Sequence record: OR896831.1
Strand: one strand, 5' to 3'
DNA: 51,209 bases
Source: Escherichia phage BubbaBully
Position numbers and translations under genes: made by a program. The notes under the pieces are model-generated. The model searched no databases, was not told the DNA's origin, and saw nothing but the letters and a program-made list of their open reading frames with translations. Positions within the stretch are counted from its first letter, which is position 1. Every line of letters starts with the position of its first letter. Of this stretch, positions 1 to 51,207 are shown piece by piece.

Positions 1-1572
1 ATGCTGATATGGGAAGATTTAACAGTGGCGCAGAAACGCGCCATTAAGGAAATGAGTGAATACTCGTTTGAGAAAATGATTCGAATCTGGTTCCAGTTGC
101 TCCAGGGTCAGAAATTCCTGGGTAACTGGCATTTCAGCTATTTGTGCCACGAAGTAGAGAAAATCATTTCCGGCGAGTCGCAAAACGTGATCTTTAACAT
201 CACGCCAGGCTCAGGTAAAACCGAGGTATTCTCGATCCATATGTCGCCTTATGCGTCACTGAAAAGCAAGAAGGTGCGAAACCTTAACCTGTCGTTCTCT
301 GATGGCCTTGTCCAGCAGAACAGCAACCGAATCAAGGAAATCATAGGCTCTCCAGAGTGGCAGGAGCTATGGCCTGGCAAGCTGGCGAAAGCGAGCGCGA
401 AAGATCTGATTGTGCAGGACGGAAACGGAAAGGTTAAGTTGCAAGTCAACTCCCGATCCATCGGCGGCCAGGTAACGGGTTTGCGTGGCGGTTACATGGA
501 TGATGGATTTACCGGAATGTTGGTACTTGACGATCCAGATAAACCTGACGACATGTTCTCAAAGGTGCGGCGCGAAGCGATTCACAACCGCCTTAAAAAC
601 ACCGTTCGCTCTCGTCGAATGAAGGACACCACGCCTATTGTGATGGTTCAGCAGCGCCTACACGTCAACGATTCGACGTGGTTTATGACAAGCGGCGGTA
701 TGGGCGGAATCGAGTTTAAGGTTGTGAGTATTCCCGCGCTGGTTACGAAAGAGTATGGCGAGACTCTCCCTGATTGGTTAAAGCCAGAGTTTGAGCGTGA
801 TGTGCTGAATAGCGAACCAGTTTACATTGACGGCGTGGCGCACTATTCATTCTGGCCTGCAAAGGAGAGCGCAAAGGACTTGCTCGCGCTGCGAGAAGCG
901 GATCCGTATACTTTTGCGTCACAGTACCAGCAGCAGCCGATAGCGCTGGGTGGCAACGTATTCAAGGTGGATTGGTTCCAGTTTTATGGCGACGGCGAGA
1001 AATGCACGCTGCCGAAACCGGATCGCTTTGAATACACGTTTATCACTGGCGATACGGCACAGAAAGCCGGAGAGCTTAACGACTATTCTGTTTTCTGTTA
1101 TTGGGGCATGTTCAAGAATCGTGTTTACTTTATCGACGGCATCCGTGGGAAATGGGAGGCTCCAGATCTGGAAACGAATTTTAAGGCTTTCGTCAATCAA
1201 TGCTGGAAGCGTAACAAAGAGTGCGGTAGCTTGCGCCGGATCCACATAGAGGATAAAGCGAGCGGAACAGGTTTGATTCAGGGCGCAAAAAAGAGTTTGC
1301 CTATTGACATAAATCCCGTTCAGCGCAGCACTGACAAAGTTACTCGCGCAATGGACGCAGCGCCAGTAATGCGAGCCGGACGCGTTGCGCTGCCAGAGAG
1401 TCACCCGATGCTAAACGAGATCCTCTCAGAGGTAGCGGCTTTCACTTTCGACGACTCGCACCCGAACGACGATATCGTAGATAACATCGTTGATGCGGTT
1501 AACGTTGAAATGAACCTGGCAGACGATCCAGTAGCGCGAATGAAAAAGCTTGCTGGGCTACGGAAGAAATAG
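1..1572 (+). CDS. terL: terminase large subunit
   Basis: 523-aa ORF beginning at window position 1; Walker A-like PGSGKT near N-terminus; follows putative TerS if the window is circularised. Confidence 0.8.
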   Translation: MLIWEDLTVAQKRAIKEMSEYSFEKMIRIWFQLLQGQKFLGNWHFSYLCHEVEKIISGESQNVIFNITPGSGKTEVFSIHMSPYASLKSKKVRNLNLSFSDGLVQQNSNRIKEIIGSPEWQELWPGKLAKASAKDLIVQDGNGKVKLQVNSRSIGGQVTGLRGGYMDDGFTGMLVLDDPDKPDDMFSKVRREAIHNRLKNTVRSRRMKDTTPIVMVQQRLHVNDSTWFMTSGGMGGIEFKVVSIPALVTKEYGETLPDWLKPEFERDVLNSEPVYIDGVAHYSFWPAKESAKDLLALREADPYTFASQYQQQPIALGGNVFKVDWFQFYGDGEKCTLPKPDRFEYTFITGDTAQKAGELNDYSVFCYWGMFKNRVYFIDGIRGKWEAPDLETNFKAFVNQCWKRNKECGSLRRIHIEDKASGTGLIQGAKKSLPIDINPVQRSTDKVTRAMDAAPVMRAGRVALPESHPMLNEILSEVAAFTFDDSHPNDDIVDNIVDAVNVEMNLADDPVARMKKLAGLRKK

Positions 1573-5807: not shown

Positions 5808-5835
5808 TTGCACGTTTAACAAAAAGTGCTATCAT
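5808..5835 (+). promoter_or_regulatory. sigma70-like promoter for major capsid gene (TTGCAC-16-TGcTATCAT)
   Basis: -35 TTGCAC 5808-5813, 16-bp spacer, extended -10 TG-n-TATCAT 5827-5835; the reversed box lies within the spacer and -10. Confidence 0.45.
5815..5832 (-). promoter_or_regulatory. conserved box, reversed orientation, overlapping capsid promoter
   Basis: TTTAACAAAAAGTGCTAT is the reverse complement of the box; followed by 8-bp hairpin 5839-5859 and strong RBS. Confidence 0.5.
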
Positions 5836-5876
5836 TGAGGCTGTTAATCGCTAACAGCCTTTAAGGAGAAAGAAAC

Positions 5877-6839
5877 ATGACTAAAAAGTATGACGAATTT
5901 GACGCCAGCGTTGTAACCGCTCACCTGCAAATGCAGGGCGTTAAAAATGACGCTTCCGATATGGGTATCTGGACTGCGCAGGAGCTTCACAAGATCCGCT
6001 CCTCTGCATACGAAAAAGAATACCCTGTAGGCTCCGCGCTGCGAGTGTTCCCTGTCACCAACGAACTGAGCGACACTGACAAGACTTTCGAATACCAGAC
6101 TTTCGATAAAGTTGGCTACGCTAAAATCATCGCTGATTATACCGACGACCTGCCAACCGTTGACGCGCTGATGTCAACCGAGTTTGGTAAAGTGTTCCGC
6201 TTGGGTAACGCTTTCCTGATCTCCATTGACGAAATCAAAGCAGGTCAACGCACTGGTAAGAGCCTGAGCGCTCGCAAGGCAAACGCCGCGCAGAATGCTC
6301 ACGACCAGCTTGTAAACTTCCTGGTGTTCAAGGGTTCCAAGCCGCACAAAATTCTGAGCGTGTTTGAACACCCTAACCTGACCAAGATCGTAGCCGCTAA
6401 AAAATGGTACGACTCAAGCTCAAAAGCCAAAGAGCCAGAGCAAGCTTTCGACGATCTGACTGCGGCAATCGAAGCGCTGGAGACTCAGACCAACGGGCAG
6501 CACCGCGCTACCCACATTCTGATCCCGCCAAGCGTCCGTAAAGTTCTGATGGTTCGCATGGAAAATACCACTGAGAGCTACCTGGAATACTTCCAGAAGC
6601 AAAACGGCGGTATCACCATTGAAGCAATCGCAGAGCTTGAAGATATCGACGGTTCCGGCGGCAAGGGCGTACTGGTGTACGAAAAAGATCCAATGAATAT
6701 GTCCATTGAGATCCCCGAAGCATTCAATATGCTGCCAGCGCAGCCTAAAGACCTGCATTTCAAAGTGCCTTGCACCTCTAAATGCACTGGTCTGACAATC
6801 TATCGCCCATTAACTCTTGTGTTAATCACTGGCGTGTAA
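5877..6839 (+). CDS. major capsid protein
   Basis: 320 aa; own promoter, strong RBS AAGGAGAAAG, terminator downstream; position after scaffold and decoration genes. Confidence 0.65.
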   Translation: MTKKYDEFDASVVTAHLQMQGVKNDASDMGIWTAQELHKIRSSAYEKEYPVGSALRVFPVTNELSDTDKTFEYQTFDKVGYAKIIADYTDDLPTVDALMSTEFGKVFRLGNAFLISIDEIKAGQRTGKSLSARKANAAQNAHDQLVNFLVFKGSKPHKILSVFEHPNLTKIVAAKKWYDSSSKAKEPEQAFDDLTAAIEALETQTNGQHRATHILIPPSVRKVLMVRMENTTESYLEYFQKQNGGITIEAIAELEDIDGSGGKGVLVYEKDPMNMSIEIPEAFNMLPAQPKDLHFKVPCTSKCTGLTIYRPLTLVLITGV

Positions 6840-20132: not shown

Positions 20133-20564
20133 AATTAATTCCTCGCTTCATTAGTGAGTAATAACAATACCATAAATGGAGATTATTTCACAACCAAAAT
20201 CATCTTTGTTCTTTTTGTTTCTCGTTGTTCACGACAGCACCCACCGTAGAATCGCGCAACGTTTTAGAACAGAAAAAACAAAATAAATCATCTATAATAT
20301 ATAATAAAATCAATAGTTTAGTTTATATGTATTTGTATATTGTTATTTATTGTTTCCACTGTTTCAGTGTTAATTGATGTATTGGCTTGCTTTCGTCTGG
20401 ATATCTCTATTAGCCATTTTATGTGTGTATTTGTACAAACCCCACCGCAAATCCGTGAACAATGAAACAGAAAATAACGACGTTTAAAATCATGCACTTA
20501 AGCGCTGATTTTGTTATCTAGGTGGAAAGATGCGTTTCGAGAACAGAAAAAACAATTGATGGTA

Positions 20565-36762: not shown

Positions 36763-37084
36763 CGTCGCTTAACTCGTCAAGATGAAACAGATCGTAAATG
36801 TATTTGTTGCTTTCACCTTCAAGGCTATACAACTCAAACCCAAACGGCCTCTTGCGCGAGCCTTTGCACGTCACCACGCCTTTATCTATCCCAAGATATC
36901 CCAATGTAGCCATTCGCGGTATAAACTCAAGAGAAACGCTTGAGGCGAATTTACGAGGCGTCATATTGGCGGCTCTCGCGAGCCGCTCACATTCTTTGTG
37001 CTTAAAAACAAATCTCGCTAAGTGCTGGCGATTAAACCAATCGTAACTTTCGCAAAACTTATACAGATCCAGCAGAAACATCAT
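36692..37084 (-). CDS. hypothetical protein
   Basis: 130-aa ORF immediately downstream of the P-loop NTPase gene. Confidence 0.45.
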   Translation of the reverse strand: MMFLLDLYKFCESYDWFNRQHLARFVFKHKECERLARAANMTPRKFASSVSLEFIPRMATLGYLGIDKGVVTCKGSRKRPFGFELYSLEGESNKYIYDLFHLDELSDDELFNTKSNRCDYEALRRKFGIA

Positions 37085-41562: not shown

Positions 41563-41841
41563 TTAAAAGCATTGAGGGCAAGAGCTTGCGATAAACTTGA
41601 TCACATTGCGCAGTTGGCGCTCGTCAAAGATTGTCGCTGGCAATTCCTCTTTCACTTCCTGGCGCAGATAAACGTTGCCGTGCCATGTGAGCTTGTCGTG
41701 TTCAATGCGATAGCTGCACATCCATTCACAATCGTTGTCAGCCTCCCAAATGCAAAGAGCGGTGTAGTCGCCCAAGTCCTCAACGGTCAATTCAATGCCG
41801 CGTTTCTTTGCCATGTTGAAAGTGGTCTTGCTGATGTTCAT
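41563..41841 (-). CDS. hypothetical Cys-rich protein
   Basis: Start set at ATG 41841 (GAGGAA RBS); first gene of the leftward accessory block. Confidence 0.5.
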   Translation of the reverse strand: MNISKTTFNMAKKRGIELTVEDLGDYTALCIWEADNDCEWMCSYRIEHDKLTWHGNVYLRQEVKEELPATIFDERQLRNVIKFIASSCPQCF

Positions 41842-41872: not shown

Positions 41873-41916
41873 ATTATGCCGAAATCAGATCAGTCTGTTT
41901 TAGCAAAAAGTGCTAT
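41873..41916 (-). promoter_or_regulatory. box promoter (box + 22 bp + CATAAT) driving the leftward accessory block
   Basis: Box 41898-41916; -10 at 41873-41878; CA-rich leader. Confidence 0.55.
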
Positions 41917-41994
41917 TTAATCGGTAGTCAGTGATTTTGATGATTGCTTGACCAGTTTTGTAAGGTTGTTTTTGATGCCCGTCAACTTTTGTGT

Positions 41995-42035
41995 GATTGT
42001 GATGATTGTTGATTAGATTTGATTGGATTTGATTG
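41995..42035. repeat. iteron-like array of GATTG direct repeats
   Basis: GATTG at 41995, 42004, 42021, 42031 and GATTA at 42011, spaced 7-10 bp, in the AT-rich divergent region. Confidence 0.5.
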
Positions 42036-42503
42036 TGGGAATCAGCATGGCCTGACGATGCCGTTTTTGCGCTCTCTAAAACTCCACTCTGTTATCTTCT
42101 GTTTACAATCGTTTCCTCTTGTTACCAAAAGTACGGTGGCGTAGTTTGTTCGCGTTTTTCGCGTGGCAGAAACAAAAAAAAACTTTTAATCTCCCTATAA
42201 ACAACTAATAAAATCAATAGTTTATTTTATATATATTATATTTGTTTTCACTACGTTATACTTGTTCCATATGGTATAGGGTGGTTATGGGATTTTATTA
42301 TTGGTGGTATTGGTTAATTTATAGGCATGTTCCGCTCAGGATGTTTACGATTCATCATTTCGTTGTGGTTGCTTTGGGTGACATATACATATTCATTATG
42401 GCCTCCGAAAAAACTGTAACGGCTGTAACATGCAAAAAACAGAATTTATCATCATGTAAATCAACAACTTACGACAAATTTTGTTTTTCGGCTCAAAAAA
42501 AAC

Positions 42504-42532
42504 TTGTGGAAACCGATTGTAACATGCATAAT
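42504..42532 (+). promoter_or_regulatory. sigma70-like promoter (TTGTGG-17-CATAAT) for first rightward early genes
   Basis: Hexamers with 17-bp spacer and upstream A-tract; no box; CA-rich leader before ATG 42565. Confidence 0.45.
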
Positions 42533-42564
42533 GCACACCGAAATGAACAAACGGAGGTAAAACG

Positions 42565-42990
42565 ATGTCAGATCAATCATTTGGCGATCAATTGCGTGCA
42601 GCGGCACGAATGCTGGCGAGCGGCGAGCGTGACGAAATCATCATGACCGACTACCAGTTACAGCAAGCGTCGGGAAAGGAGAAAATCAACCCAAGCCATA
42701 TCCGTACAACTATGGCGCGAGAGGTTCGCACCTTGGGAGCTATCAGCGTGAAGCGAATCACGGATCCGGTTGGATACGTTTGCACGTTCAACCCTGACCC
42801 AAAGAAACGAGCGATTGCCAGCGACGAGCTACCAGCAATCAAGGCGCGTGCGGCAAACAAGGCTCTAAAATCAATCGCTGAGGTGATGCCGAGCCTAACA
42901 GACCTGCAAGGCGAGCAGCTACAGGGAGCAATGATTGCAATTCAGCGCTACCAGGATTTAATAAAGAAGCAAATCAACGAGGAGGTTTAA
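42565..42990 (+). CDS. hypothetical early protein
   Basis: 141-aa first ORF of rightward early block; weak HTH-like segment. Confidence 0.5.
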   Translation: MSDQSFGDQLRAAARMLASGERDEIIMTDYQLQQASGKEKINPSHIRTTMAREVRTLGAISVKRITDPVGYVCTFNPDPKKRAIASDELPAIKARAANKALKSIAEVMPSLTDLQGEQLQGAMIAIQRYQDLIKKQINEEV

Positions 42991-50676: not shown

Positions 50677-51207
50677 ATGAGCAGAGAAGAAAAGCAAAAG
50701 CCATTCACGGCTTACAACTTTAAGAAACTATATAACAAGCAGTATGGCGATATCGCCACGCTAGGAAAGCAACACCGATACACGCCGGAGCAGGTTTTTA
50801 ACCTTGCCGTCAAATACTTTGAGTGGGCGGAGTCCAACGCACTAAAGGCGGCTGAATCTTCATCGTTCCAGGGGCGCACGTACCAGGACGAGGTAAACAA
50901 GCCGCGCGTTTTCACTTTCAACGGTCTGCGCCTGTTTTGCGGCTGGTCGCGATGCGCGATGGAGAAATGGAAGAAAGAGCCAGGTTTCTCCGAGGTTATG
51001 GAGTTTATCGAGTCTGTGATCTATGAGCAGAAATTCCAGCTTGCGGCTAACGGCGTGATTAACGCTGCATTCATCGCCAAAGATTTAGGAGTTGACCAGC
51101 CGACGCAAATCAACGTTAGCGCAAACTCCGAGTCAAGCGCTGCAATCGCAGAGGTTGGAGCCGACGAGGTGCGCGAGGCGGTTCGTGATATTCTTGCGGA
51201 GATCTGA
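50677..51207 (+). CDS. putative terminase small subunit
   Basis: 176 aa from ATG 50677 (GAGGAGG RBS); ends 2 nt before window end and, circularised, sits directly upstream of terL; call by position only. Confidence 0.5.
   Translation: MSREEKQKPFTAYNFKKLYNKQYGDIATLGKQHRYTPEQVFNLAVKYFEWAESNALKAAESSSFQGRTYQDEVNKPRVFTFNGLRLFCGWSRCAMEKWKKEPGFSEVMEFIESVIYEQKFQLAANGVINAAFIAKDLGVDQPTQINVSANSESSAAIAEVGADEVREAVRDILAEI

Follow-up and report, generated by a model that had tools for sequence, protein, structure and literature searches.

A helically phased TGAT array in Escherichia phage BubbaBully as a probable recognition part of the T1-family pac site

We found a dense, same-strand array of TGAT repeats in the main divergent intergenic region of Escherichia phage BubbaBully (record OR896831.1; the whole stretch of 51,209 nucleotides is called the window). 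Comparison with the packaging ends of related phages suggests that this array is probably the terminase recognition part of the pac site, from which DNA would be packaged rightward. BubbaBully encodes a pac-type terminase pair, the small subunit TerS and the large subunit TerL. The window opens with the large terminase gene and closes with the small terminase gene, and is therefore a complete, circularly opened T1-like phage genome of the Drexlerviridae, genus Henuseptimavirus. The array region is 90-93% identical to those of Escherichia phages JohannLBurckhardt, IsaakIselin and Henu7 and Enterobacter phage AS5, which belong to Drexlerviridae, Tempevirinae, genus Henuseptimavirus. The array occupies the position homologous to the located packaging-series starts of TLS, T1, MSK, SU57 and UDF157lw. 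Together these five phages represent four subfamilies, two of which are added by MSK and SU57 (Braunvirinae) and UDF157lw (Rogunavirinae). The repeats and the proposed cut zone are as follows.

41932..42035, + strand: whole TGAT/GATTN cluster, proposed terminase recognition part of pac; densest pentamer cluster, conserved in 11 Henuseptimavirus sequences
42000..42035, + strand: core array, with TGAT exactly 10 bp apart (42000, 42010, 42020, 42030) and variable pentamers between
41931..41946, + strand: left copy of a 16-nt direct repeat, GTGATTTTGATGATTG, containing the 9-mer TGATGATTG
41993..42008, + strand: right copy of the 16-nt direct repeat, GTGATTGTGATGATTG, overlapping TGATTGTTG at 42003-42011
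42036..42080, no strand: probable zone of the first terminase cut, extrapolated from relatives

All copies in the cluster lie on the + strand. An earlier note on this DNA, made from the sequence alone, had listed GATTG at 41995, 42004, 42021 and 42031 and GATTA at 42011, with further copies near 41933-41946; these positions are correct (the further copies are GATTG at 41942 and GATTT at 41934), and GATTT at 42016 and 42026 had been overlooked. The segment 42011-42035 is an uninterrupted (GATTN)5, reading GATTA GATTT GATTG GATTT GATTG. The spacing of about one helical turn claimed for the listed pentamers has to be moved to another unit: the pentamers are 9, 7, 10 and 10 bp apart, and the exact 10-bp phase belongs to TGAT. 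The conserved repeat unit is thus better written TGAT(T/G). Tandem Repeats Finder reports a period of 5 for the array, and also a period of 10 with 94% matches. Further TGAT copies start at 41932, 41938, 41941, 41973, 41994 and 42003. The 16-nt direct repeat, GTGATT(T/G)TGATGATTG, begins at 41931 and 41993, 62 bp apart, and its two copies are 94% identical; its 9-mer TGATGATTG is also present in the homologous regions of TLS and EC125. The core of the right copy, GATTGTTG, starts at 42004 and is found beside the packaging start in T1, MSK, UDF157lw and K50PH164C1. The 9-mer TGATTGTTG is not unique, having three copies in the genome. The + strand has no C over the 56 nt from 41987 to 42042, and the GC skew across 41950-42049 is +0.51. 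A leftward transcript through 41987-42042 would lack G and be rich in C and A, as Rho loading sites are; a leftward promoter that would serve this C-free stretch from upstream was not established.

The repeat cluster is genuine, occurs once in the genome and exceeds chance expectation. With five TGATT and four GATTG copies in 41 bp, it is the densest + strand pentamer cluster of the genome, and it is the single genome maximum for TGAT, TGATT, GATT, GATTG and TTGAT. Four GATTG copies within 41 bp were reached in 0 of 200 dinucleotide-preserving shuffles, and five copies of any pentamer with at least three different bases likewise in 0 of 200; four copies of some pentamer occurred in 42 of 200.

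We then compared the array with the packaging ends of relatives. The TLS GenBank record begins with AGATTTTGTGATTGAAATTGATTTGATTTGATTAGATTTGAG and ends with ...TGATCAGATGATGATTGATGTGTG; these join in the homologous array, so that TLS position 1 lies inside it. The TLS pac was located by means of a sub-molar pac-HindIII fragment, and its authors singled out the hexamer AGATTT (PMC11447400). A HindIII site, AAGCTT, is located at TLS 5876-5881; therefore, TLS position 1 is the mapped pac, with packaging along the + direction of BubbaBully. In T1, the record junction falls in the equivalent TGAT-rich cluster (...GATCATGATTGATCTCTAATGATGAGATGTGATT / GTTGCATGG...TGTTGATGTGATTGTTGCTTAG...ATGATTGTGAG), which contains GTGATTGTTGC twice, and the T1 pac has been placed in this untranslated region (PMC7718038). 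For MSK, PhageTerm gave a start at 36,862, forward, with p = 1.6e-9 (PMC8421802), which is 58 nt to the right of GATTGTTG. The end of the SU57 record, set at an abrupt change of coverage, is 17 nt further right than the MSK start, and the record of UDF157lw, reorganised with PhageTerm, opens at about the homologous position of the MSK terminus. The read-based termini of MSK, SU57 and UDF157lw thus lie 52-76 nt right of a GATTGTTG-type motif, the SU57 version of which is TATTGTTG. T1 reportedly begins to package lambda DNA between genes P and Q, a result ascribed to Drexler in 1984. We checked the P-Q interval of lambda for a matching TGAT cluster and saw mild TGAT enrichment at about 43.3-43.9 kb, without a convincing alignment.

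The earlier note had pointed to the equivalent region of related phages, and there the array is kept in 11 Henuseptimavirus and 8 Tlsvirus sequences. The Henuseptimavirus set comprises seven GenBank phages, including BubbaBully, and four IMG/VR contigs. Scanning viral contigs for an exact 14-mer gave at least 120 chance matches and was too unspecific; a 45-nt pattern recovered four relatives. In other genera, the orthologous intergenic region was found via the DUF7174 gene. From TGATGATTGT to GTGG, the Henuseptimavirus array measures 39 nt in 11 of 11 sequences. Its units 1, 3, 5 and 7 (TGATx) are conserved except for the last base and one TGAAT in JohannLBurckhardt, and units 4 and 6 vary (AGATT/ATTTT/TTTTT and GGATT/GAATT/TGATT, respectively). 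Tlsvirus has a homologous array at the same place, 32 nt long in all eight sequences, with GAT in register every 10 bp and alternate units variable (for example, GTGAT TGAAA TTGAT TTGAT TTGAT TA GATTTGAG). The array is retained in both genera, even though their flanking DUF7174 proteins share only about 36-41% identity. A reading of the Tlsvirus variants as copy-number changes was dropped, as the array length proved constant on counting. The fixed length combined with the turnover of units argues against a neutral slippage repeat and for a reader that is sensitive to phase. Neutral slippage (a microsatellite-like product), or merely bent DNA, with no sequence-specific role, is scarcely credible: 5-bp tandem repeats do arise readily by slippage and the region is non-coding, but the 11 and 8 sequences show several substitutions and no length polymorphism, TGAT stays in phase, the array persists across the genera in spite of the divergence of the flanking protein, and the curvature of the core is unremarkable, the curved segment being a neighbouring box. 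In a wedge model, the predicted curvature of 42000-42040 is 17 degrees (84th percentile), and the peak, 33.9 degrees (99.95th percentile), is at 41904 in that box.

Two further variations among the relatives concern the array and its surroundings. In about 70 bp at the left of the cluster (41920-41999), phages with more than 90% identity elsewhere carry two clearly diverged alleles without indels between them (BubbaBully against our sequences L002, L003, L004 and L006). One is the BubbaBully/JohannLBurckhardt/N5822 type and the other the IsaakIselin/Henu7/AS5/Samwise type, and TTTGAT is frequent in both, a pattern suggestive of mosaic exchange within a constrained spacing. In Tlsvirus, two tandem perfect palindromes, TAGACCGATTGGTCTAGACCG(T/A)TTGGTCTA, adjoin the leftward box (L135, about 795-825; likewise L137, L138, L147, L148, L150 and TLS, which is L156, about 690-720). 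They resemble a double operator of the kind that a dimeric regulator would bind, and are absent from BubbaBully.

The terminase genes that would act on the array lie at the two ends of the window.

50677..51207, + strand: TerS, small terminase, proposed array reader (Pfam PF16677 GP3_package, E = 8.5e-14; PDB 3P9A, P22 gp3, E = 7.8e-18; PHROG 606, E = 7e-54)
1..1572, + strand: TerL, large terminase, proposed nuclease and motor for the pac cut (PHROG 38, E = 7e-103)

By these matches, the BubbaBully TerS is assigned to the P22 gp3 family. In the mechanism that we propose, a TerS ring would bind the same-strand TGAT(T/G) motifs, four of them one helical turn apart at 42000-42035 and more back to 41932, and would position TerL on the replicated concatemer. 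TerL would then make the first cut some tens of bp to the right of the array, roughly at 42036-42080, and DNA would be packaged rightward across an AT-rich core and the early genes, with later cuts being sequence-independent headful cuts. Carried over to BubbaBully, the 52-76 nt offset of MSK, SU57 and UDF157lw corresponds to 42056-42080; we widened the zone to 42036-42080, starting from the right edge of the array, because the TLS and T1 record starts fall inside their arrays. In small-terminase rings, neighbouring DNA-binding motifs are about one turn of B-DNA apart (PMC4737164), a geometry that would match the 10-bp TGAT phase. More tentatively, the TerS proteins of the T1 family might each read one TGAT(T/G) motif per ring subunit, on one face of the DNA and at helical-turn spacing, instead of a single asymmetric site; we regard this as possible, short of probable.

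The surroundings of the array, needed for the comparisons below, are these.

41875-42564: divergent intergenic region, 690 bp, separating a leftward from a rightward operon of small early genes
about 41898-41919, - strand: T1-family 21-nt direct-repeat (DR) box, AATAGCACTTTTTGCTAAAA, a neighbour and not a part of the array
42150..42300, no strand: AT-rich core, 23-24% GC, the most AT-rich DNA of the genome, 115 bp right of the array; rival candidate pac or origin determinant
42504..42532, + strand: predicted rightward early promoter (TTGTGG, 17-nt spacer, CATAAT, A-tract upstream), read from the sequence; a consensus scanner made no call

The TLS pac resembles the BubbaBully array most closely. 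It lies at the homologous position, with the leftward DR box on its left and the AT-rich core and DUF7174 gene on its right, and shares the same-strand array with TGAT/GAT every 10 bp, TGATGATTG, AGATTT and the packaging direction. It differs in having 32 nt between the anchors, compared with 39 nt in BubbaBully, and in its flanking sequence; beside the TLS array stand two operator-like palindromes as well as three hexamers of the form TGATC(N), which are Dam sites, and BubbaBully has neither. These hexamers form a cluster directly left of the TLS array (L156, 755-790), and GATC sites lie left of the TGAT cluster in T1 as well (L158, 900-925). The ends of T1, MSK, SU57 and UDF157lw likewise fall in the intergenic region between two clusters of small early genes, with GATTGTTG and ATGATTG/GCAATGAT within about 80 bp of the terminus. 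Their clusters are looser, however, without the regular 10-bp array, and in T1 another DR box follows on the right of the cluster.

Known pac systems outside the family offer partial parallels. The P1 pac consists of clusters of TGATCA/G hexamers and is cut under the control of Dam methylation. Like the array, it has several same-sequence TGATxx hexamers flanking the cut, and TLS and T1 have TGATC copies beside theirs. In BubbaBully, by contrast, the hexamers are TGATTG, TGATGA and TGATTA, and the terminase family also differs. No GATC occurs within 41932-42035, and since the hexamers contain none, Dam control of the BubbaBully array is ruled out; the phage does encode Dam-like and Dcm-like methylases. 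In SPP1/SF6, the pacL, pacC and pacR regions carry box repeats wrapped round the TerS ring (PMC4737164). There too, direct repeats adjoin the cut beside promoters and the ring subunits are about one DNA turn apart. On the other hand, the SF6 repeats were found not to drive binding, which followed DNA bendability, and the BubbaBully core array is not predicted to be bent; the fold of the SPP1/SF6 TerS and its mode of DNA binding are also unlike those of BubbaBully. By analogy, the array would work like these other multi-repeat pac sites of P1 and SPP1. The P22 pac site (GAAGATTTATCTGAAGTCGTTA, read by gp3) serves a homologous TerS. The P22 core AAGATTTATCTG has AGATTT in common with BubbaBully 42014-42019, on the strand pointing in the packaging direction, and we also count as a likeness that P22 cuts are spread around the site and do not fall at one base. 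As for a P22-type site in BubbaBully, the best match to AAGATTTATCTG is 8/12 and does not fit the published pseudo-pac pattern.

Several observations weigh against the assignment of the array to pac. P22 uses one asymmetric site of 22 bp, which lies within the TerS gene itself, whereas the BubbaBully array is intergenic and about 8.6 kb upstream of TerS, and gp3 is thought to bind DNA via its C-terminus and not through an exposed helix-turn-helix. Only Henuseptimavirus and Tlsvirus proved to have clear arrays. The clusters of T1, Braunvirinae and Rogunavirinae are of the looser TGATTG/GCAATGAT kind, Warwickvirus EC125 has ATCA (the complement of TGAT) in the opposite orientation with spacings of 10, 10 and 5, plus TGATGATTG, and few copies are present in K50PH164C1 (which has TTGATTGTTGC) and aaroes. 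The depletion of variable columns at TGAT in Henuseptimavirus is marginal, one of the eight variable columns falling in the 16 TGAT columns (hypergeometric p of about 0.07). The TLS position came from restriction mapping and was then refined by eye with AGATTT as the guide, and the T1 end point used here is the start of the GenBank record. The read-based cuts fall beside the array and not inside it, so that another nearby element could be the true determinant. For BubbaBully itself, we infer the binding of TerS to the array, the cut position and the packaging direction from sequence comparison with these relatives.

We then investigated the rest of the intergenic region. The DR box at about 41898-41919, which carries a -10-like CATAAT at 41878-41873, belongs to a leftward early gene with a probable start at 41841. 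A 21-nt direct repeat with the consensus aaATAGCACnnnTTGnTAAAA has been described in TLS, T1 and Rtp, about 76 nt upstream of start codons and with unknown function (PMC11447400). The window has 11 copies, at 5823, 9538, 28964, 31456, 33420, 39588, 40981, 41907, 43260, 46146 and 48607. Most are followed by about 22 nt (often a GC hairpin), a -10-like hexamer, a conserved leader (CGAAAC...GAGGA) and a gene; the 22-nt gap exceeds normal -35/-10 spacing, and the boxes at 5823 and 9538 face antisense to the structural operon. On the other side, the predicted promoter at 42504..42532 precedes the DUF7174 gene, the first of the rightward operon, at 42565; the homologous position in N5822 and Samwise has TTGACA-type promoters. 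The motif TGTAACATGCA(A/T)AA is duplicated at 42424-42437 and 42518-42531, 94 bp apart, with an A-tract before each copy, and the second copy falls in the spacer of this promoter; the duplication may mark a regulator site or a further promoter. Upstream of exoVIII, at 20268-20344, there is a paralogue of the AT-rich core (best match 42171-42246, 77% over 79 nt). A 90-bp stretch of the core shows about 78% conservation in Warwickvirus and other genera, and CCACCG...GCGCAAC-like motifs flank the core in relatives. The blocks 42150-42300 and 20200-20450 are the sole two below 30% GC in the genome, each in a large divergent intergenic region, and are candidates for origin(s) or early promoter hubs.

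The array could alternatively be an operator or activator array for a phage early protein or a host factor, controlling the leftward DR-box promoter or both divergent promoters. The earlier note had placed it between these two promoters; it does adjoin the leftward DR box, from which it begins 13 bp away in the main divergent early control region, and the rightward promoter is 470 bp off. Cooperative regulators, such as the ribbon-helix-helix (RHH) proteins omega, MetJ and ParG, typically act at short direct repeats in phase, and the operator-like palindromes of Tlsvirus in the same interval indicate that regulators act in this region. We nevertheless consider a regulatory array unlikely. No sigma-70 promoter is predicted in the array or just right of it, the other 10 DR boxes of the window have no such array, and the distance from box to cluster varies by genus from about 13 bp to more than 100 bp, leaving no fixed promoter phase. 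No DNA-binding domain was recognised in the flanking genes, and the gene annotated as a 'putative transcriptional regulator' in JohannLBurckhardt is far from the array, next to the primase. Motifs of the E. coli factors IHF, Fis, DnaA and CRP, and direct repeats of response regulators (ArcA/PhoB-type), were checked by eye and none fits. A regulatory role would also leave the packaging ends at this spot in five relatives unexplained.

That the pac determinant is another element nearby, either the AT-rich core with its ATATA repeats or a block at about 42069-42105, and that the TGAT array is accessory or unrelated, is a further alternative. According to PMC8421802, an earlier proposal for T1 named ATATA repeats, which also counts against the TGAT array; some T1-like GenBank records open between the array and the AT core, and the MSK, SU57 and UDF157lw cuts fall there. 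However, the AT core is duplicated in the genome, whereas T1 and TLS have one known pac, and the ATATA motifs are absent in MSK and Rtp (PMC8421802). The cuts are 52-76 nt from the TGATTG motif, whereas in MSK the AT core is at least about 120 nt away, and the block, CTGTTATCTTC, is common to only some Tlsvirus members. We therefore rate this alternative as quite unlikely.

A replication origin, in which an initiator would bind the repeats as iterons and open the AT-rich core that lies 115 bp rightward, seems highly unlikely. The repeats lie next to the genome's most AT-rich DNA (23% GC) and at a strand switch where the GC skew turns locally, the origin of the T1 family is unmapped, and GATC clusters stand beside the array in TLS and T1. 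Yet the unit of 5 or 10 bp compares with about 17-22 bp for classical iterons, the best DnaA-box match is 6/9 (TGTGGGAAT), and the BubbaBully array is free of GATC. No Rep/O-type initiator is encoded nearby; the flanking genes are the DUF7174 gene and PHROG families of unknown function, and the primase and helicase are far away. No TGAT array lies beside the paralogue of the AT core at 20268-20344 or beside the Warwickvirus core copy (upstream of exoVIII), and the array is thus not an obligatory partner of the core. From the earlier note's reading of the repeats as origin iterons or cooperative repressor or activator sites, the part that stands is helically phased sites for a cooperative or oligomeric binder, which looks right given the constant length and the TGAT phase; nothing specific speaks for the origin, repressor and activator roles.

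Other candidate features at the locus were tried and rejected. For a small RNA or terminator right of the array, Rfam gave no match at E <= 1, and a hairpin at 42043-42063 followed by T5, in the proposed cut zone, folds no better than shuffles (z = 0.04). The scanner found no promoter inside the array, where the TTGAT units resemble -35 hexamers and no -10 follows. Coding potential was likewise discarded: no minus-strand open reading frame (ORF) of at least 30 aa overlaps the array, and just two short TTG-start ORFs on the + strand start close to its right end (42019 and 42033). The N5822 annotation places a short coding sequence over the array, for which BubbaBully has no equivalent.

The array fits best as the Henuseptimavirus representative of the pac region of the T1 family, homologous to the pac assignment of TLS. 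In the literature that we searched, the pac of this family is described only as an untranslated region (T1, PMC7718038) or as the hexamer AGATTT (TLS, PMC11447400). The 10-bp-phased TGAT architecture is a modest refinement of these descriptions and not a new kind of element. If one TGAT(T/G) motif is indeed read per ring subunit, this would be the first defined pac code for Drexlerviridae and would set a multi-site against a single-site mode inside one TerS family. The finding also corrects a tempting misreading, as repeats beside AT-rich DNA resemble an origin. T1-like phages are frequent laboratory and fermentation contaminants, generalized transducers and therapy candidates. The conserved phased TGAT array gives a concrete, testable candidate sequence for the pac of the family; it could help to predict pseudo-pac sites in host genomes, and would allow the genome records of the family to open at a biologically meaningful position.

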